Part shown: in pieces, positions 7,423 to 43,981 of the stretch
Layout of the letters: every line of letters starts with the position of its first letter
Numbering within the stretch: position 1 is the first letter of the stretch
Origin: an uncultured Verrucomicrobiota bacterium
GTDB taxonomy: Bacteria; Verrucomicrobiota; Verrucomicrobiia; Palsa-1439
Assembly (NCBI GenBank): GCA_903825435.1
Contig: CAIKAP010000043.1
Location: 282 to 64,281, forward strand
Direction: 5' to 3'
Length of the DNA stretch: 64,000 nucleotides
The notes under the pieces: generated by a model
The model's input: the letters and a program-made list of their open reading frames with translations, nothing else
Database searches by the model: none
Told to the model about the DNA's origin: nothing
Translations under genes and position numbers: made by a program

Positions 7423-8618
7423 TCGCGTAGTTGCCCCGTGCCGGTGACGACGTATTTGTAGCTGGTCAGGTCTTCGAGGCCCATCGGGCCGCGGGCGTGG
7501 AGTTTGTCCGTCGAGATTCCGATCTCAGCGCCGAAACCATATTGGCCACCGTCGGCCAGCCGCGTGCTGGCGTTCCAGAAGACGCTTGAAGAATCCACTT
7601 CGCGGAGGAAACGCTCCGCCGTCGCTTTATTGTTGGTAACGATGGCGTCGCTGTGGGCGCTGCCGTACTTGGTGATGTGCTCAATCGCCTCCCCTACTCC
7701 ATTGACGACGCGGAGAGCAATGATGAGGTCGAGATACTCCGTCTGCCAGTCGGCATCGCGGCGAATCTCGACCTTGCGCTCAGCCAACGCCTTCTCGATG
7801 CGGGGAAGAAACGTGCCGGCAAGCGGCGCATCAATGAGCAACGTCTCGATGGCGTTGCAGACGCCGGGGCGCTGGCACTTGGCGTTGATGACGATCCGCT
7901 CCGCCATGTCGAGGTCGGCGTCACGATCAACGAAGACGTGACAGATTCCCTTGTAATGTTTGATGACCGGGATGCGCGATTTCTCGACAACGGCTCGGAT
8001 GAGTCCTTCGCCGCCGCGCGGGATACAGAGGTTGATCAATTCATCGAGCTTCAGCAATTCGTCAATCGCCGCCCGGTCAGTCGTCGGCACGACGGTGATG
8101 GCGTTCGCAGGCAAGCCGGGGACGTTCATCGCCTCGGCAAGCGCAAGATTCGAGTGAATCGCCTCGGAACCACCCCTCAGGATGACCGCGTTGCCGGTCT
8201 TGAAACAGAGCACGGCCGCGTCAACGGTCACGTTCGGGCGCGACTCGTAAATGATGAGAATGCTACCGATAGGGACGCGAACTTTCTGGATCCGGATGCC
8301 ATTGGGGCGCGTCGTCTCGCTGATGGTAGTACCGACGGGGTCAGCCAACGCGGCGACTTCGCGAACACTTTTGGCAATGTCGGCGATGCGTTTCTCGTCG
8401 AGCGTCAACCGCTCAAGCATCGCGGAGGACAGCCAGGACTTTTTGCCGGCTTCGAGGTCCTTGGCGTTGGCGGCCTTGATCTTGTCGGCCGCCTTTTCGA
8501 TGCCATCGGACATCGCCAGCAACAGCTTGTTCTTCGTCGCGGCGTCGAGCTTCGCCAACGCGCGCGCAGCCTTCTGGCTGCGCTGTGCTAACGCCGTCAT
8601 CTGTTCTCTCAAATTCAT
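7419..8618 (-). CDS. proA: Gamma-glutamyl phosphate reductase (glutamate-5-semialdehyde dehydrogenase)
   Basis: 399 aa with full-length ProA homology (aldehyde dehydrogenase fold, catalytic Cys region). Confidence 0.9.
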   Translation of the reverse strand: MNLREQMTALAQRSQKAARALAKLDAATKNKLLLAMSDGIEKAADKIKAANAKDLEAGKKSWLSSAMLERLTLDEKRIADIAKSVREVAALADPVGTTISETTRPNGIRIQKVRVPIGSILIIYESRPNVTVDAAVLCFKTGNAVILRGGSEAIHSNLALAEAMNVPGLPANAITVVPTTDRAAIDELLKLDELINLCIPRGGEGLIRAVVEKSRIPVIKHYKGICHVFVDRDADLDMAERIVINAKCQRPGVCNAIETLLIDAPLAGTFLPRIEKALAERKVEIRRDADWQTEYLDLIIALRVVNGVGEAIEHITKYGSAHSDAIVTNNKATAERFLREVDSSSVFWNASTRLADGGQYGFGAEIGISTDKLHARGPMGLEDLTSYKYVVTGTGQLRE

Positions 8619-34365: not shown

Positions 34366-34707
34366 ATGAACGTAATTGAAAAGATACAGCAGGAACAACT
34401 CAGGACCGACCTCGTGCCGTTCAAGGTGGGCGACACCATCAAGGTGCACACCCGCATCAAGGAAGGCGACCGGGAACGCATTCAGGCCTTCTCCGGCATC
34501 GTGATCAACCGCCAAGGCAGCGGCATTGCCGCCAGCTTCACCGTGCGCCGCATCAGCTATGGCGAAGGCGTCGAACGTGTTTTCCCTCTTCACTCGCCCT
34601 TCATCCAGAAGATCGAGGTCGAGCGTGCCGGCAAGGTGCGTCGCTCCAAGCTCTACTACCTGCGCGACCGCGTCGGCAAGACCGCGACCAAGGTCGAAGA
34701 CGCCTAA
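34366..34707 (+). CDS. rplS: 50S ribosomal protein L19
   Basis: L19 core (…[16 protein letters not shown]…[10 protein letters not shown]…[18 protein letters not shown]…). Confidence 0.9.
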
Positions 34708-36167
34708 CGCGAGCTGCTCGTGATGGGCTGGAACGTGATCGATCGCAGATTGATCAGATACGTACTACGGCTTACACCAGGGTCAGGTTTCAATGCAATG
34801 GTCACTTGACCGTCTGGCAATCGCATCCGACCGATTATAACCTTCCGAAATGTATACCACCCATCCGTAGCCCTGAGTGTAAACTTTTTACTGTCGTCGC
34901 CGCAGGCTAGCACGACCACAGCACCACCCGACTTCAGATCTAACGCGTAGTCCAGTTCCACATCATACTCCCCTGCCCCGTTGACCGTGGTCGTCCACGA
35001 GGCGGAATCGCCGCGCGTGGACCAGTAGCCGATGTTCGGTATGCCGGTGAAAAACTCGATCTTGATTGACACCCCCTTCAAAATCGCTTCCTCAGGACCC
35101 AGTTTGAAGCCTTTCCGCTGGTCCGCCACCTGCAATATTAACGGCGGTGGCGGCGCGGGAAAAATCTTCGGTTTCTTGTTCTTCTTCCAAAACAAGTACC
35201 CAACCGGCAATAGCGCCGCAAACACCAGTATCACCACAACAATCAATACCGCCTTTTCCTCCGAATGAACTGGCTCGGGTTCCGTTACCTTCTTCGTTTG
35301 CGCAGGTACGCGCGTGACTATCCATGCCCCCGACAACGCGTAACGGACGATCTTGACGTTGGATCGCTTTCCTGACGAGGGTCGCATCTGCGCGGTCTTC
35401 TCGACCTTGATGGCTTGGTCGAAGGTGAGTCGAACGCGGCCCATACCGCGGTTGCGTAAGAACCACGGTGTTCCCAATTCAGAGTGTCGTTTCAGTTCGT
35501 GCAACAACGCGGCGCAATCAAACGACACCTGAAGCAACTCGACCCGGCCCGTGGCATCATCGAAAATGCCGTAACTGGCCTTCTCTGTGCCATCGCGCGG
35601 ATCGCCGACGGAACCGACGTTGATGATGTAGCGCGAACCGGGGGCGATGATTAGATCACGCCGATCATCCTGCGCAATCTGGCCGTCCGGGGCCAACACA
35701 AACATCCCCGCCCGGTGCGTGTGTCCGAGGAACGTGACCGGCTGGTTCGCCGCCTCGAAACAAACCCGCGCATCGTCTGCCTGTTCCACGTACCCGTACG
35801 CGTCCGGCGCAACCGTCTCGGCATGGACGAACATGATCTGGTCGCTCTCAATCTCCAGCGGCCACTCCCGCAACAGCTTCTTCCCCTCCTCGTTCACCTG
35901 CGTCATCGTCCACTCCGCCGCCTTGCGCGCCGCGTCGTTGAAAATGTCGAGGTCGAGCCAGCCGGCGACCGCCGAGTCGTGGTTGCCGAGTACGAGATTG
36001 GAGCAATACTTCCGAAGATCGGCCAACACCTGCGCTGGGTTCGGCCCGTAACCGATCGTGTCGCCGAGGCAGATGACCGCGTTGACCTCCCGTTTCAGGA
36101 AGTCGTCGCGCACCGCGCTCCACGCCTGCCAGTTCGCGTGAATATCAGAAACAATCGCGTATCGCAT
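34704..36167 (-). CDS. Fusion protein: N-terminal calcineurin-like metallophosphoesterase (PPP/ApaH-like), single TM helix, C-terminal extracytoplasmic beta-rich domain
   Basis: MPP motifs [21 protein letters not shown]; TM helix [21 protein letters not shown]; approx 190 aa C-terminal domain of unknown family. Confidence 0.7.
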
Positions 36168-36344
36168 GACTCTGCGCGATTATCCACAGATTCGCTGTCG
36201 GTGCAACCGGAACATTTCCTCCGTCGGCGACGGCAAAGAATTCAAATTTGTGGATCGGGCGGATAGAACCGGGCGATGACCACCGTGACAATCCCGCTGA
36301 AACAGGCGAGGGCGACGGCGAGAACAGGCGTACACCCGTGATAA

Positions 36345-36812
36345 TCAACTATTTTCACGGCATAGAGGTGTCGGCGGTGTTCCTCCCGACAATTGGATCA
36401 GTGTTATCGACCGGCTGTTTGAGTCATACCGGATTTGGTAGGTAGGGTGACTGTTAGGTTCAAAGAATACTTCTGATTCAATGAGTGTTTCCTGAGGGTT
36501 GACATGAACCAGTCGTGCCTTCCCTTTGCCCTCAAGAACTTTCCCATCCGATTCTTGCTTTATTGTTATGGCATCTTTATCGACGACAATCGTGTTGTCG
36601 ATTGCTGGCACATCAATGGTATTGCCGTTAATGCGAATCGCATTCCCATCTTTGTCCCGCATTGAGTAGGATGAAGTTTGTCCTGAAAACGTTCCGATAC
36701 ACATCTCAGGAATTGGTTCTTGTTTGACAGACATATTCTTACCCCCAGTTGGTTGCGATTCTCCACACCCAGAAAGCAACAGCGTGAGGACAAATGTTCC
36801 GACCGAAATCAT
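36345..36812 (-). CDS. Hypothetical lipoprotein
   Basis: Lipobox LLLSGC after a signal peptide; inside the low-GC islet. Confidence 0.5.
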   Translation of the reverse strand: MISVGTFVLTLLLSGCGESQPTGGKNMSVKQEPIPEMCIGTFSGQTSSYSMRDKDGNAIRINGNTIDVPAIDNTIVVDKDAITIKQESDGKVLEGKGKARLVHVNPQETLIESEVFFEPNSHPTYQIRYDSNSRSITLIQLSGGTPPTPLCRENS

Positions 36813-36900
36813 TCCACACCAGTTCAGTTTCAATTGGATGTAGTTGTTTTGTCCCGCGCACATGTTGCTTCCTAGTCGCTTCTACACGGGCGTCACACCT

Positions 36901-37332
36901 TCATTGGATTGATACTGGGTGAACATTAAACTTCCATTCGCTTCCGTCTTTAAAAAGTGTTCCGGCCCAAATTGATTCAGACCTGTACGAAACAGATGGA
37001 GTAAAAAATACGCGGAATGTAATTTTGTCGCCATTTCGACTCCCGAAACTAATGTCAGCTTTGCCTCTACAACCGGCTGAAACAGGTGAACCGCCTGCCA
37101 TTTGTCTTTCAACTTCCCTACAAATTTGATCTCCATATTCACGCGGGTCGCCTTTTTTGCTTTCTGACGACGAGCTTGTAGAATCTGACCCTCCACATCC
37201 GAGTGTGCTGAATAGAAAAAAGACGCCAAGGCAACCCAATACACCAAGCCAATTTCTTACTTTGTTTAGAATAGTCGCAGTCCTATTTGGTTTCGTTGTG
37301 GATGTTGCCGTTGCATTTTGTTCTGTGCTCAT
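36901..37332 (-). CDS. Hypothetical lipoprotein
   Basis: Signal peptide + lipobox STLGCGG; low-GC islet. Confidence 0.5.
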   Translation of the reverse strand: MSTEQNATATSTTKPNRTATILNKVRNWLGVLGCLGVFFLFSTLGCGGSDSTSSSSESKKGDPREYGDQICREVERQMAGGSPVSAGCRGKADISFGSRNGDKITFRVFFTPSVSYRSESIWAGTLFKDGSEWKFNVHPVSIQ

Positions 37333-37390
37333 ATGTTTCTCCGTAGTGTTGGTTGTTTGTTCAGTTGTTCGCGGACTCTTGGTGCTGCTA

Positions 37391-37711
37391 TTATTGTAAC
37401 CGATGGATTAAATCAAGCAGGCCAGCGGAGTCATCCATGGGACGCGCAAACGCCCAGTAAAACATCCAGATAGCGTCACCAAAAGAAACAAAAATTAGTT
37501 TCTTGCCACCAGACTCGCGCTTGGCTATCGCCACCAACCCGACGTAGATGCACGCCAATCCCATAAGAAACTCAAGCATATGGTTTGCCGTCAATATGAA
37601 GATCACCCACGCCAAACCATTGACGCCCCAGCCCACCCATAGCGGGACTGGCGCAGTTATCTTTGTCAACCAACTCGGATTTGCCGTTTGTTGTTCTGTC
37701 TGATTGGTCAT
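37391..37711 (-). CDS. Small hypothetical membrane protein (2-3 TM)
   Basis: Hydrophobic segments; low-GC islet. Confidence 0.4.
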   Translation of the reverse strand: MTNQTEQQTANPSWLTKITAPVPLWVGWGVNGLAWVIFILTANHMLEFLMGLACIYVGLVAIAKRESGGKKLIFVSFGDAIWMFYWAFARPMDDSAGLLDLIHRLQ

Positions 37712-37844
37712 AGTTTCCTTTCGATGCTTTCGTTGTTATGTGTTCTGTTGTTCATCCTACTCGTATGGCTTTTCGGATTCGCCCCGTTTGCTGCAGTTTC
37801 TGGACTCTGCTTCCTGTTAAACTCCGTCTTGGGCACCTTCACGT

Positions 37845-38717
37845 TTATAGTTTTTGGAGCACTTGCGCCGAGATAAGCTGAATGGGTTTCGCCATTTTTC
37901 CGCCCACCCTTTTTCTGACCAATTCCAACGCTCTCGTAAGAAAGTAATTGCTTGGAAGAATAATCACCTGTAGTTCCATTCCCAATTCCGCGCGAAACCA
38001 CCACTCAGGATTTCCAGACTTTGTGTCCTTATGCCAATGAATGGAATCATTTTCGTTTACGGGCAATCTCCATTCGCGCTCTGATAGAAACCGAATGGAA
38101 TTATAGTCAGGAAAATTATCGTTGGGCAGAATGTCGAGTTTGCACGGCGGCGCAAATACCGGCTTGATTTTACCAGTACCGATCTTTGACTTGCCCGTTT
38201 CAAGTCGTGGCAATCTTGTGCATTTGATAAACCGCGCCAACAATTCCAAATGCTGTTTAGCGAGTTCACCTTTCTTATCATATAAACCAGCAGCGTTCTT
38301 TCGCAGGAAGGTAACCGCAGAAACAACCGGATCATTCCTTCCGCCTGTATAAATTAATGGCCTCCCTCCGAGTCTAAAAATGAATCTCTTGGCAAAACCG
38401 AATCCGAGTCTACCGTAAAGGCGCCAGTGTCTTTCGCTTGTCCCCGCAGCCTGCTCGGTAAAAAAGAGACAAGGTTTAGGATCGGTGCTCGGCTCAGCCC
38501 CCCCGACCTTATCGAATTCTGAATACGAGGCGACACGAAGCCCACGCTTGGGATTAAGTGCATCATCCAAGTAATCAAAATAGGTGTCACCCTGTTTTTT
38601 TGTAAGTTTGGGCTCAACACTTAATGGCTTGCGATGAGGCGCAGGTTTGTTCGCATCATCTGGATATTCGATGTCATATCCCACCCACCGAAACAACATG
38701 GAATCATTTATGTTCAT
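37845..38717 (-). CDS. Hypothetical 290 aa protein, no confidently recognised family (possible abortive-infection/defense-type protein)
   Basis: Long uninterrupted ORF in an AT-richer (about 47% GC) segment; first gene of the four-gene islet operon. Confidence 0.5.
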   Translation of the reverse strand: MNINDSMLFRWVGYDIEYPDDANKPAPHRKPLSVEPKLTKKQGDTYFDYLDDALNPKRGLRVASYSEFDKVGGAEPSTDPKPCLFFTEQAAGTSERHWRLYGRLGFGFAKRFIFRLGGRPLIYTGGRNDPVVSAVTFLRKNAAGLYDKKGELAKQHLELLARFIKCTRLPRLETGKSKIGTGKIKPVFAPPCKLDILPNDNFPDYNSIRFLSEREWRLPVNENDSIHWHKDTKSGNPEWWFRAELGMELQVIILPSNYFLTRALELVRKRVGGKMAKPIQLISAQVLQKL

Positions 38718-38821
38718 GTTTTCTGCGTCTTAATTTTTGCCGTGTTCTACATGTTCATGTGGCTGACGGGGTCGCTCCAATCGCTATAGCCGGCTTGCCA
38801 GCCTCTGGCGGGTCGAGCCGC

Positions 38822-39451
38822 CTACGGCGCAACCTTCGTTGCCGGGTCGCTCCACGGGCCTTGACCGGCAGCGCCAATCGCCGCCACCCGGAACCAATAC
38901 TTCTGGCCGGTCGTCAGGCCAGTCACCGATTGTTTGGACTTCGTCGCCACGCCGGCCGATTTCCAGCCGGTCGCGGCGGCGGCATCGGTCGTCTGTTCCA
39001 CCACGTAGCTGCTCGCCCCTTTGACCCGGTTCCATTGGACATCTATCTCGCCGTCCCGGTCGCCCGTCGTCGCGCTGAGGTCGGTCGGAGCCGGTAACTG
39101 GCCAATCGGCGCAGCACCGGAACGCACATCCATCCCGGCACTGCGAATCTTGTTTTCATCGCCGTCGGCGATGGTATCAACGTATGCGCCGAGCTTAGCC
39201 AGCAGGTCATCCAACGCCGCCTCGCTGGCGGCAACGACACTGGTTTGCCCTTCCGCCTGCTGGCGGAGATTGGCCAACGTGTTGTTGTCCGTCTCCAGCT
39301 TGGTGGCCGCGGTGCCCACCGAGCTGAGCGTCGGCGCCGGCGCCACGAACGCCGGGTTCCCCAACATTGCCTTGATATACGCCCGTGTGGAGGCGATCTT
39401 CTGGGCGACGGATTCATCTTTCAGACCGAGTTTGACTTTAGCTTTAGCCAT
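38822..39451 (-). CDS. Fibronectin type III domain protein
   Basis: Start MAKAKVKL with an AAAGGAG RBS; C-terminal FN3-like region (…YVVEQTTDAAAATGWKSAGVATKSKQSVTGLTTGQKYWFRVAAIGAAG…). The same frame stays open upstream through the 21-bp repeats. Confidence 0.6.
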   Translation of the reverse strand: MAKAKVKLGLKDESVAQKIASTRAYIKAMLGNPAFVAPAPTLSSVGTAATKLETDNNTLANLRQQAEGQTSVVAASEAALDDLLAKLGAYVDTIADGDENKIRSAGMDVRSGAAPIGQLPAPTDLSATTGDRDGEIDVQWNRVKGASSYVVEQTTDAAAATGWKSAGVATKSKQSVTGLTTGQKYWFRVAAIGAAGQGPWSDPATKVAP

Positions 39452-39514
39452 GACTGGCTCCTTTCTGGTGTAACTGGTTGATGGTTTGGTTGTTATCTCT
39501 TGCAAAACGGTTCC

Positions 39515-39745
39515 GAAAGCGACTCGGATCGGCGTAAACCGACCTCGGATTATCGTAAACCGAGGGCGGATTGCCGTAAACCGAGGGCGGATTGCCGTCA
39601 TCCGAGCCGGGTTGGCGGTAATCCCGGCAAGGATGGGCGTCAACCGAGGACGGTTCGAGGCAATCCGTGCCGGGATGGTGACCAACCGAGGACGGATTAC
39701 GGTCAACCGAGCCGGGACGGCGGCAATCCCGGCAAGGATGGCAGG
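39515..39745. repeat. Degenerate 21-bp tandem repeat array, approx 10-11 units (consensus approx CGTAAACCGAGGGCGGATTGC)
   Basis: Head-to-tail 21-nt units; several six-frame ORFs read through it as heptad peptide repeats (NRGRIAV / IRPRFTA). Confidence 0.7.
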
Positions 39746-39804
39746 GGGATGAGGAAGATTCGGCTTGAAAAACCGGAAGGTATTCTACCGTGGCACAATC
39801 ATTG

Positions 39805-39860
39805 CGGAACGGCGGAACGGCGGAACGGCGGAACGGCGGAACGGCGGAACGGCGGAACGG
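39805..39860. repeat. Octanucleotide microsatellite (CGGAACGG)x7
   Basis: Seven perfect tandem copies immediately after the 21-bp array. Confidence 0.85.
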
Positions 39861-39962
39861 CGGAACGGCAAACTGCAGATTGCAGACGCGCTTCCATGCC
39901 GATGCTTCTAATGAAAGTTTTGCGCACAGTCAAGCCCGGAAACTTGGATGTCGGATTCCGGT

Positions 39963-41044: not shown

Positions 41045-43794
41045 GATGTAAATCCTTTCACGACTTCCGCGCATCGTCCACACAACTGTGCGTGCGCTGC
41101 TTCCGCTCCCACGTCCATCGTCCAACGCCAGCAGCGGACGCACTTCTGACCGTTCGCTCGGCTGACGATCACCCGTGTTGCATTGCCCGTCGGCGCAGCC
41201 AACTGCACAGCCGACACGATCAACACCGTCTCCAACAACGACCCGAAATCTGCCAACAGCTTCCACGTCTCCTCGCTGTCCGGCGCGATCTCAACCTGCG
41301 CCTCCAGCGACTTGCCAATGACGCCCGACTGACGCGCCTTCTCCAGTTCCAGCGCCACTGCGCTGCGCACTTCCAACACCTTCTGCCAGCGCGTTTCCAG
41401 CGCCGCGTCCCGCACCTTCGCGTCCACTGTCGGAAACGCCGCCAAGTGGACCGACTCTGCGTCCCGTCCTCCAAAAAAGCTCCACACTTCGTCCGCCGTA
41501 AATGGCATCACCGGCGCGATCAACTTCGCCAGCGCACTAACCGTCTGATGCATCACCGTCTGCGCCGAGCGCCGTTCGGGCGAACAGGGCGCAAGTGTGT
41601 ACAGCAGGTCTTTCATCACGTCAACGTAAAAGCTGGACAATTCCACCGCGCAGAAAGCGTTCACCAAATGATAGACCCGGTGAAACTCAAACCGCTCGTA
41701 CGCCTCTGTCAATTCCGCCACCAGCGCCTGCAATCGCGACAACAACCAGCGGTCAATCGCCGTCAACTTATCCGACGGCACAGCATCCTTGGCGAGGTCG
41801 AAATCGTACAGGTTCGCCAACAAGATACGGAATGTGTTCCGTATCTTCCGGTAGGTGTCGCTGACACCATCGAAAATCTCATCCGACAACGGGATGTCGC
41901 CTTGGTAATCCTCCGACGTGATCCAGAGCCGCAACACGTCCGCACCGTACTTGTTAACGTAGTCCTCCGAGTTCGCCGGTCTGCCGGCGGACTTGGATAT
42001 CTTTGCCTTCTTTCCGGTCTCCTCGACGTGGACGACGAGGAACCCGTGCGTCACCACCGTCTTAAACGGAGCCTTGCCTGCCGTCGCCATCGCCGTCAAC
42101 AGCGACGACTGGAACCAACCGCGATGCTGATCGCTGCCTTCAAGATACACATCTGCTGGGTAGGCCAGCTCGGGACGCGTCCGCAACACCGAGCGATGGC
42201 TCACGCCCGACTCGAACCAGACGTCCACGATGTCCGGGCTCTTGTCGAGGTTCGCAGAACCGCACGACGGGCATTTTACGTCACCGAACAACTCCGCGAC
42301 ATTCCGCTCAAACCAGATGTCCACGCCGTCTTTCACCACCTGCTCGCGGAACTTCAAAATCAGATTCTTGTCCAACAGCGGTTTGCCGCAATCCCGGCAC
42401 AACAGGAAAGGCAACGGCACGCCCCACGCCCGTTGGCGCGACACGCACCAGTCCGGTCGCATCCCGATGGTGCCCGCGATCCGGTTCTCGCCCCACGCCG
42501 GCACCCACTGGACCTTCTTCACCTCGTCCAGCGCGCTCTGCCGAAGTCCCTGGTGATCGAGCGCGATGAACCACTGCTCCACCGCGCGGAAAATGATCGG
42601 GTTCTTGCACCGCCAGCAATGCGGATACGAATGTTTGATGTCTGCCGTCGCCGCCAGCGCGCCGATGTTGCGGATATGTTCGACGATCGGCTTGTTGGCC
42701 TTGAACACGTACTGCCCGGCGAAATGTCCTGCTTCCTTCGTGAACACGCCGCCATCGTCCACCGGCGCGAGCGTCGGCAGTCCGTACTTCTGCCCGATCT
42801 CGTAATCTTCCGCGCCGTGGCCGGGCGCCGTGTGAACGAGGCCGGTGCCTTGTTCCAGCGTCACATACGGCGAGATCACGATGGGCGACTCGCGCTCGAC
42901 GAACGGATGCTGCGTTATGATGCCTTCCAGCTTCGCGCCCGGAAGTTTTTCCAATACCTTCAACTCAATGCCGCACGCCTTGCCGACTTGCTCGACGAGG
43001 CCCTCGGCCAGCAACCACGTTTCGCCGTTGGCTTGTGCGCGGACGTAGGTAAGGTCAGATTTCACGGCGATGGCCACGTTGGCGGGCAACGTCCACGGCG
43101 TCGTCGTCCAGATGACGGCAAATTCGTTTGGCTTGCCTTTGAGGGCGAATTTCACAAACACCGAGTGCGAAACGTGGTCGGCGTATTCGACTTCGGCCTC
43201 GGCCAGCGCGGTCCGGCAACTGGCGCACCAGTACACCGGTTTCTTGCCGCGATAGACAAACCCTTTGCCGACCATCTCGGCCAGCGCGCCGATGATCTCG
43301 GCCTCGTACTGCGGCGACATCGTCAGGTACGGATGCTCCCAGTCTCCGAACACGCCGAGCCGCTTGAATTGTTTGCGCTGGATATCAATGTATTTCTCGG
43401 CAAACACCCGGCATCGCTTCCGCATTTCGGACTGGGAAAGTTTCTCACCGGATTTTTCCAGCTCTTTCTTGACCTTGTACTCGATGGGCTGGCCGTGGCA
43501 GTCCCAGCCCGGTACGTACGGCACGCGGTGGCCGCGCATAGTCTTGTACTTGACGATGACGTCCTTGAGGATCTTGTTCAGCGCCGTGCCGATGTGGACG
43601 TCGCCGTTGGCGAACGGCGGCCCGTCGTGGAGCACGAACAGCGGCGCATCCTTGCGCGCTGCCTGGATGCGCTCGTAGATTTTGTCCTGCTCCCAGTGAG
43701 CCAAAAGCTGCGGCTCCCGTTGCGGCAGGTTGGCCTTCATCGGGAAGTCCGTCTTCGGAAGGTTCAGCGTGTCTTTATAGTTGATTTCGCTCAT
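41041..43794 (-). CDS. ileS: Isoleucyl-tRNA synthetase
   Basis: 917 aa with HIGH-like (PFANGDVHIGT) and KMSKS regions; full-length IleS homology. Confidence 0.95.
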   Translation of the reverse strand: MSEINYKDTLNLPKTDFPMKANLPQREPQLLAHWEQDKIYERIQAARKDAPLFVLHDGPPFANGDVHIGTALNKILKDVIVKYKTMRGHRVPYVPGWDCHGQPIEYKVKKELEKSGEKLSQSEMRKRCRVFAEKYIDIQRKQFKRLGVFGDWEHPYLTMSPQYEAEIIGALAEMVGKGFVYRGKKPVYWCASCRTALAEAEVEYADHVSHSVFVKFALKGKPNEFAVIWTTTPWTLPANVAIAVKSDLTYVRAQANGETWLLAEGLVEQVGKACGIELKVLEKLPGAKLEGIITQHPFVERESPIVISPYVTLEQGTGLVHTAPGHGAEDYEIGQKYGLPTLAPVDDGGVFTKEAGHFAGQYVFKANKPIVEHIRNIGALAATADIKHSYPHCWRCKNPIIFRAVEQWFIALDHQGLRQSALDEVKKVQWVPAWGENRIAGTIGMRPDWCVSRQRAWGVPLPFLLCRDCGKPLLDKNLILKFREQVVKDGVDIWFERNVAELFGDVKCPSCGSANLDKSPDIVDVWFESGVSHRSVLRTRPELAYPADVYLEGSDQHRGWFQSSLLTAMATAGKAPFKTVVTHGFLVVHVEETGKKAKISKSAGRPANSEDYVNKYGADVLRLWITSEDYQGDIPLSDEIFDGVSDTYRKIRNTFRILLANLYDFDLAKDAVPSDKLTAIDRWLLSRLQALVAELTEAYERFEFHRVYHLVNAFCAVELSSFYVDVMKDLLYTLAPCSPERRSAQTVMHQTVSALAKLIAPVMPFTADEVWSFFGGRDAESVHLAAFPTVDAKVRDAALETRWQKVLEVRSAVALELEKARQSGVIGKSLEAQVEIAPDSEETWKLLADFGSLLETVLIVSAVQLAAPTGNATRVIVSRANGQKCVRCWRWTMDVGAEAAHAQLCGRCAEVVKGFTS

Positions 43795-43981
43795 GGGAGC
43801 TTCAGAGAGGGCGGAAAACTACCACGCACCCCTATCAGTGTCAACGCACGGAAAGCCTGAAAGGAACGCTGTAAAACCGGGTTTAATCAAAGCCCCAGAA
43901 AACTACATGCTTTGTTAGCACATTACCCGCTTCCCTCAACGGTTTCCAAGCTGGCGGAAGCTCGCGCCGCCATTCCAACGG

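Follow-up and report, generated by a model that had tools for sequence, protein, structure and literature searches.

A mosaic low-GC islet of a freshwater Verrucomicrobiota bacterium and its predicted stand-alone AbiGi-family protein

Introduction

Does a short islet of low guanine plus cytosine (GC) content, set among the housekeeping genes of an uncultured Verrucomicrobiota bacterium, hold one four-gene system, or genes that came together independently? The islet lies at about 36345-38760 of a 64,000-nucleotide (nt) stretch of contig CAIKAP010000043.1; the whole stretch is called the window here. A sequence-only reading had described it as a minus-strand operon of unknown function, coding for a 290-amino-acid (aa) protein of no recognizable family, a protein with several transmembrane segments and two lipoproteins, and resembling horizontally acquired toxin-immunity or abortive-infection cassettes. 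The reading that we favor, with a probability of about 0.68, is that the islet is a mosaic recombined from an array of genes that begins with an fn3-domain gene and ends with the gene for a membrane protein, TM112; that the 290-aa protein is a stand-alone effector of the AbiGi family resembling ADP-ribosyltransferases (ARTs); and that the envelope proteins encoded beside it are passengers.

Composition and layout of the islet

The GC content of 36345-38760 is 0.460, against a mean of 0.591 in the other 2416-nt windows of the 64 kb (standard deviation 0.026, minimum 0.540), so that the low-GC islet first seen by eye is borne out at z = -5.0. The GC profile falls most sharply at 36341 and recovers most sharply at 38739, and within the 64-kb window this is the sole trough of such depth. 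GC at third codon positions (GC3) is 0.46, 0.57, 0.33 and 0.46 in the four islet open reading frames (ORFs), and 0.72-0.86 in seven flanking genes (ffh, trmD, rplS, the phosphoesterase gene, the fn3 gene, lspA and ileS). These contrasts, together with pseudogene stubs at both borders, mark the segment as foreign and show that the ~2.5 kb between a resident fn3-family gene and the gene for a metallophosphoesterase (36242-38794) were acquired horizontally, as a mosaic; the horizontal origin proposed earlier is thereby backed. As also stated earlier, neither an integrase nor a tRNA adjoins the islet: no integrase occurs among its neighbors, and the tRNAs of the window are at 4.9 kb and 63.5 kb only. 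A search for direct repeats flanking the islet gave nothing convincing; the 26-nt repeat D5 pairs the fn3 stub with the fn3 gene end.

All four ORFs lie on the minus strand. The gene for the 290-aa cytoplasmic protein (37845-38717) is followed by those for p106 (37391-37711), p143 (36901-37332) and p172 (36345-36863), of 106, 143 and 172 aa, with intergenic gaps of 133, 58 and 37 nt. The small membrane protein p106 has two to three hydrophobic segments by hydropathy. p143 is a putative lipoprotein whose lipobox (TLGC, within FSTLGC) ends at C46, and p172 a lipoprotein whose lipobox (LSGC, within LLLSGC) ends at C33; both follow the PS51257-type pattern and are preceded by a hydrophobic segment, and the probable start of p172 is M18 (36812). 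The four minus-strand ORFs, the multi-transmembrane protein and the two lipoboxes thus stand as first described. Shine-Dalgarno-like sequences precede p106 (AAGGA), p143 (GGAG) and p172, but not the 290-aa gene, which starts 32 nt past the stop codon of the upstream stub and 104 nt past that of the resident fn3 gene. The resident fn3 gene probably supplies its promoter.

Housekeeping genes lie on both sides, with ffh, rpsP, a KH-domain gene, trmD and rplS beyond one border and lspA, a dksA/traR-type gene and ileS beyond the other. Thirteen metagenome contigs of its population, drawn from several samples, carry the islet with 100% identity, and all contigs bearing the neighboring fn3 gene also bear the islet; it is fixed in its population.

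Family and predicted fold of the 290-aa protein

Scans of all four islet proteins against Pfam, PADLOC, NCBIfam and PHROGs gave nothing usable. The family of the 290-aa protein is recognizable through its homologs, which fall into 31 clusters at 42-62% identity, with 46 invariant columns across the 31 subfamily sequences. Pfam AbiGi (PF10899) is matched by 29 of the 31 and the PADLOC AbiGi model by 28, and three full-length homologs (42-48% identity) score above the Pfam curated cutoff (25-26 bits vs 22.4). Out of 1.84 billion, an exhaustive profile search returned 374 representatives at E ≤ 1e-3, with about four of them standing for the protein's own subfamily. AbiGi is matched by 58 of 61 full-length superfamily members (best E 1.9e-12), and hhalign aligned the superfamily profile with the NCBI-annotated AbiGi protein of pSD_88 (Salmonella) at 98.6% probability (E 5.9e-16, 207 columns). 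By this profile evidence the 290-aa protein, once placed in no family, is a divergent member of AbiGi; it matches no housekeeping family, and the islet is not an ordinary core locus.

No AbiGii was found among the islet proteins or the 67 ORFs of the whole window. The tightly coupled neighbors of three distant homologs were considered as a hiding place for AbiGii and rejected, being a Zn-ribbon protein, a SHOCT protein and unknowns instead. A sequence search of the PDB with the family profile returned noise only (NDM beta-lactamases and GroEL at E > 0.2), and tblastn of the 290-aa protein against annotated phages and plasmids gave no match. In each of the nine loci examined, the AbiGi-like gene is lower in GC than the DNA beside it.

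Conserved residues point to an enzyme. In an alignment of 61 superfamily sequences, W11, G102, G107, Y123, E215, W216, R217 and P255 are invariant, E or D at 213 is universal, and H97 and Y101 occur in 59 and 57 sequences, respectively; the 290-aa protein keeps all of the invariant residues as well as E88, H97, Y101 and E213. Position 10, in strand 1, is His in 44 of the 61 and Arg in 14, and is R10 here. The tripartite signature of ARTs is [R/H]x[D/T] - [S/Y][T/x][S/x] - [Q/E]x[Q/E/D], and a 2025 survey lists AbiGi among the known ART families near DarT, DUF2971 and Tox-ART-HYD1 (PMC12522546). Candidate active-site residues, judged from the alignment, are R10, T87/E88, H97, Y101, Y123 and E213-R-E215. 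R10 falls in a predicted strand at 7-12 and E213-R-E215 opens one at 214-219, a register set by eye, without structural superposition; candidates for motif II are F85-F86-T87 (superfamily consensus C-F-T) or Y101.

An AlphaFold2 (AF2) model built from a deeper alignment reached a predicted local distance difference test score (pLDDT) of 91 and a predicted template-modeling score (pTM) of 0.86. It places long helical inserts between strands 1-2 and 4-5, the layout reported for large helical inserts in DUF2971, a relative of AbiGi (PMC12522546). A Lys-rich 45-residue segment, 167-212, had a mean pLDDT below 50 in the first AF2 model and 71-77 in the second. In Foldseek searches with two models, DarT, Tpt1 and AvrPphF recurred among the top matches, none of them significant. 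Both ADP-ribosylation and a defense function are inferred for the 290-aa protein.

Border stubs and a related array

Each border of the islet holds the end of a gene whose body is missing. Upstream, at 38747-38794 (minus strand), translation and nucleotide identity reveal a 16-codon stub of a second fn3-family gene, which reads AGYSDWSDPVSHMNM before its stop codon and stands in frame immediately past the stop of the resident gene. That resident gene (38822-39451, minus strand; 209 aa, Pfam fn3 E 6e-8) has native GC and is the upstream anchor of the variable region. In locus L044, one of the loci fetched for comparison and cited here by number, an intact fn3 protein ends in GYSDWSDPVSHMSL and a stop; the stub is 85% identical in nucleotides to the 3' end of this gene (7895-7953), 97% to that of L116 and 85% to that of L075. 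Downstream, at 36242-36343 (minus strand) and right after the p172 stop, lies a 33-codon stub that ends in ACFSGIVTVVIARFYPPDPQI and a stop. It is matched by residues 87-110 of the L044 TM112 protein (tblastn E 5e-6) and is 94%, 82% and 80% identical in nucleotides to L075, L044 and L016. TM112, a membrane protein of 112 aa, is encoded by the last gene of the L044 array.

Both stub genes are thus found intact at the two ends of the L044 array, which argues for recombination from a related array and not for integrase insertion; most likely, the islet would have arrived from an 'fn3 ... TM112' array of this kind. What lies between the two landmarks differs. L044 carries p107, three small proteins and a Band7/GYF protein there, and L075 a histidine-kinase/response-regulator operon of native GC. 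In L016, an fn3-domain gene precedes the closest AbiGi-like homolog (62% identity), and a Kelch protein and a TM112-like stub come after it. Few lineages have a TM112 gene or stub, which is confined to the L044 array, L075, L016 and L051. In the last of these, a p172 homolog (84% nucleotide identity) stands behind 28 nt that match the 5' end of the 290-aa gene letter for letter, and the surroundings are different, with a DEAD-box helicase gene and recA next to it; from its sequence, L051 looks like a deletion derivative that lost the AbiGi-like gene.

A ~130-nt segment ends two contigs of one Joint Genome Institute (JGI) sample in opposite orientations (L116 3178-3311 and L051 1-130). It holds the hairpin GCCGAAGG...CCTTCGGC and joins an fn3 gene end on L116, and the AbiGi remnant plus p172 on L051. 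This arrangement suggests that a repeat lies at the islet edge or that an inversion took place there.

The same comparisons could be taken to mean that fn3, p106, the lipoproteins and TM112 form an envelope or surface module, possibly phase-variable through the repeats upstream, and that the AbiGi-like gene is a selfish or neutral insertion, perhaps the decaying remnant of a two-gene AbiG. We consider this unlikely. Loci L044-L047 do have a p106 homolog straight after the fn3 gene, without an AbiGi-like gene between, followed by more small proteins and an intact TM112; relative to L044, the AbiGi-like gene and the RNA leader behind it amount to a ~1-kb insertion in the fn3-p106 spacer (38735 to 37752); L051 shows that the AbiGi-like gene can be deleted; and tandem and simple repeats lie upstream of fn3 genes. 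Against this reading, the ORF of the AbiGi-like gene is intact and keeps all superfamily-invariant residues, its subfamily is well conserved (46 invariant columns in 31 sequences), it is identical in 13 of 13 contigs, and many IncF plasmids maintain solo genes of the AbiGi family. The fn3/TM112 frame, moreover, is limited to few lineages, and its cargo in L075, a two-component system, is wholly different.

The RNA leader and the independence of the small genes

The 133-nt gap between the 290-aa and p106 genes contains, on the coding strand, a DUF805 RNA motif (RF03081; 37750-37815, minus strand). The cmscan match covers positions 1-68 of the 68-position model at 68.5 bits (E 1.1e-11), where the gathering score is 51.1. 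Thermodynamic folding gave no information on the 60-nt spacer element (z about 0), and it was the covariance model that identified the element. The motif reportedly comes from work by Weinberg and colleagues in 2017. Its 3' end lies 38 nt upstream of the p106 start, and by match and position it is a candidate cis-regulatory leader of p106. It resembles the known motif in matching it over the full length, in scoring above the gathering threshold and in lying in a 5' leader on the coding strand; it differs in preceding a gene whose product is not a recognizable DUF805 protein (p106 has no match to Pfam DUF805, PF05656, nor any Pfam match at E ≤ 0.1) and in travelling with islet cargo. An 89% identical copy occurs at 8510-8579 of L048 (70.1 bits), in an unrelated islet, and also in L050, in both downstream of a p172 homolog and 11 nt before the gene for a soluble 77-aa protein.

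The small proteins also occur apart from the 290-aa protein. Homologs of p106 (66-78% identity) and of p172 (42-89% identity, retaining LSGC or LCGC) were found, those of p172 in L048-L050 lying in a different low-GC islet, between UvrA-like genes. p143 is an ORFan, with no homolog in any fetched locus outside the same population, and metagenome gene callers often skip it or read another frame; its GGAG ribosome-binding site and lipobox indicate that it is probably coding. None of p106, p143 and p172 occurs in the nine other AbiGi-like loci, and the neighbors differ in each: DUF2130/SHOCT/DUF2283, Ig/LamG, Kelch, BACON/LamG, FGE-sulfatase, and a Hist_deacetyl gene with a Zn-ribbon protein are among them. 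In one, on a 199-kb contig (L008 4095-11191, homolog P0015), a DUF2130/SHOCT/AbiGi-like/DUF2283-DUF4258 block sits between a 139-aa aspS fragment and a full 588-aa aspS, and is another islet bordered by a duplicated gene piece.

The sequence-only reading had taken the four genes for one operon, and a single cassette, with the 290-aa protein as toxin or abortive-infection effector and the small proteins as immunity, sensor or membrane-effector partners, is suggested by their common strand, short gaps and common low GC, by the lack of any predicted minus-strand terminator across 36000-39900, by their joint 100% conservation in the 13 population contigs and by the link of the AbiGi family with defense. 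We nevertheless find such a cassette quite unlikely. The genes do not co-occur outside the population: nine AbiGi-like loci lack the three small proteins, p106 and p172 homologs are found without AbiGi, and L051 retains p172 with only 28 nt of the AbiGi-like gene. The separate RNA leader ahead of p106 also divides the supposed operon, setting the 290-aa gene apart from the rest, and PADLOC detects no defense system in the four genes as such. The islet cargo is thus at least three independent units: the AbiGi-family protein, the membrane protein behind its RNA leader, and the two lipoproteins. Of the earlier guess at a defense locus, the abortive-infection part survives, AbiGi being such a family; the toxin-immunity part goes unsupported.

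Comparison with known systems

Phage resistance by lactococcal AbiG, and its triggering by a tail protein, are known from experiments in Lactococcus (PMC13064643). The 290-aa protein belongs by profile evidence to the same superfamily as lactococcal AbiGi (plasmid pCI750), with which it has in common the motifs [H/R]-W on strand 1, C/S-F-T-E, H...YG.(L/F)GFG..K, P-h-x-Y, E-x-E-W-R and h-x-P-D. It differs in having Arg for the usual His at motif I, in its Lys-rich 167-212 segment and in being too divergent for a direct Pfam match; its gene has no adjacent AbiGii, and so forms no bicistronic abiGi/abiGii operon, and it is chromosomal, in a freshwater bacterium of the Planctomycetes-Verrucomicrobia-Chlamydiae (PVC) group.

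IncF plasmids of E. coli and Salmonella are already known to carry solo AbiGi-family genes (for example WP_001272932.1 on pSD_88). Like the islet gene, they code for ~270-290 aa, lack AbiGii and stand in an accessory or defense-type neighborhood, in their case beside the anti-phage nuclease Avs4. Unlike it, they have His at motif I, lie in the plasmid leading region, and have neither an fn3/TM112 frame nor envelope-protein neighbors; their identity to the 290-aa protein in hhalign is ~17%. The literature also groups AbiGi with DarT (of DarTG) and DUF2971, and the helical-insert layout is as in DUF2971, but the islet has no gene for a macrodomain (DarG-like) antidote, and neither DarT nor DUF2971 gives a significant sequence or structural match to the 290-aa protein.

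The leading region of IncF plasmids is known for anti-defense genes, and the solo gene lies there beside psiB. That the 290-aa protein might be an antitoxin or regulator neutralizing a toxin encoded elsewhere, or an anti-defense factor, instead of an enzyme effector, is very improbable even with this location, the 'antitoxin' label given to the family by Pfam and NCBI and the lack of toxicity of lactococcal AbiGi in E. coli, since the label has no experimental basis, neither AbiG protein being toxic (PMC3985639), the invariant catalytic-type residues (ExE, Tyr, His/Arg) and the ART classification point to an enzyme, and the 64 kb yielded neither AbiGii nor any other candidate toxin.

The fn3 family, upstream repeats and genomic setting

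The resident fn3 protein and that of L044 are full-length homologs at 28% identity (E 2e-18). The family is widespread (loci L052-L140), with proteins of ~205-245 aa composed of a helical N-terminal part and fn3. The window stub and the L044 gene represent a variant that ends in GYSDWSDPVSHM, two residues and a stop; the conserved end of this variant is ...GYSDWSDPVSHMxx and a stop, and the resident gene ends otherwise, in ...WSDPATKVAP and a stop. The end motif has 97 exact matches in JGI metagenomes; each of the 89 loci fetched has its stop exactly two codons past the motif. Neighbors of the family are nearly all unique. A general placement of AbiGi-like genes downstream of fn3-family genes was considered and ruled out, since none of the 89 fn3-family loci has one.

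Two repeats lie between lspA and the fn3 gene: a 21-nt tandem array at 39505-39756 (about 12 units, consensus CGGATTGCCGTAAACCGAGGG) and a perfect octanucleotide microsatellite, (GCGGAACG)x8.2, at 39804-39869. The lspA-fn3 spacer measures 504, 512 or 612 nt among contigs of the same population, so that repeat copy number varies. A comparable 21-nt array with (AGAC)x9.2 lies upstream of the L044 fn3 gene, and 7-aa-periodic repeats lie upstream of the fn3 gene in L112, L114 and L139. Such repeats may be phase-variable or regulatory.

The 487-aa protein encoded on the other side of the islet (34704-36167) starts with a calcineurin-like phosphoesterase domain, has a transmembrane segment in the middle and ends in a domain that faintly matches CBM35; one population contig (L001) carries a 475-aa variant at 97% identity. 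A search for sister genomes with this protein returned only Lentisphaerae, Verrucomicrobiota and Kiritimatiellia metagenome-assembled genomes, at 35-51% identity and without synteny, so that the host has no close sequenced sister. A 922-aa open frame at 41092-43860 (plus strand), antisense to ileS, was dismissed as an artefact typical of high-GC DNA; long ORFs in this DNA are therefore not evidence of coding. Elsewhere in the window, the PADLOC scan of the 67 ORFs matched the MADS models mad3 (1e-31), mad2 (2.7e-25) and mad8 (two ORFs, 2.3e-10), with weaker matches to AriA and NsnB. The ORFs matching MADS lie outside 14.3-28.5 kb and 48.4-50.6 kb, and may reflect a real defense locus or generic ATPase/methylase similarity.

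Discussion

The reading favored here ties these observations into one sequence of events. Recombination with an 'fn3 ... TM112' array would have left the 16-codon fn3 stub and the 33-codon TM112 stub at the two borders. The 290-aa gene would probably be transcribed by read-through from the fn3 promoter, and its product would be an NAD+-using ART-like enzyme, with its Arg on strand 1 and its ExE opening a late strand, that acts alone as a phage-defense or conflict effector and, upon infection, modifies a nucleic-acid or protein target. The envelope proteins would be unrelated passengers, not immunity partners.

Several points weigh against this account. The 290-aa protein has no direct Pfam, PADLOC or NCBIfam match even at E ≤ 10, and its membership in AbiGi is transitive and profile-based. 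A 2026 review finds no structural match for lactococcal AbiGi and gives its mechanism as unknown (PMC13064643). Neither lactococcal AbiGi nor AbiGii is toxic in E. coli (PMC3985639), so that effector activity of AbiGi alone stays unproven. As to the route, exact look-ups of the 290-aa and fn3 proteins gave islet-bearing contigs only, and neither an empty-site allele nor a donor array with this exact cargo was found, so that we infer the direction and order of events. No vector relatives came to light either, IMG/VR holding no relatives of the AbiGi-like family, fn3, p106 or p172. Lastly, the four genes may be co-transcribed.

A broader proposal, which we regard as speculative and unlikely, is that fn3 and TM112 gene ends anchor an integrase-free cassette-exchange hotspot among freshwater PVC bacteria, with expression of the region gated by the upstream repeats and the solo AbiGi-like enzyme a self-sufficient defense effector. 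Cargo may be swapped between genomes there, leaving gene-end stubs behind; the cargo so far may comprise a solo AbiGi-type ART, genes led by the DUF805 RNA, lipoproteins and, once, a two-component system.

The islet is an accessory one of an ordinary though neatly dissectable kind, and not a new four-gene system; it overturns no current view, and is a useful annotation that adds no new kind of system. It illustrates how small islets can enter genomes without integrases and how gene-end stubs reveal donor architecture, and through it the DUF805 RNA, an orphan motif, is seen on mobile cargo. What was an unknown four-gene operon becomes a specific object, a predicted stand-alone AbiGi-family enzyme that looks catalytically intact. 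Lactococcal AbiG, the founding system of the family, is still without a known mechanism, and the rare, well-conserved PVC subfamily with Arg at motif I offers a clean candidate for asking whether AbiGi is an ADP-ribosyltransferase and whether it can act independently of AbiGii.

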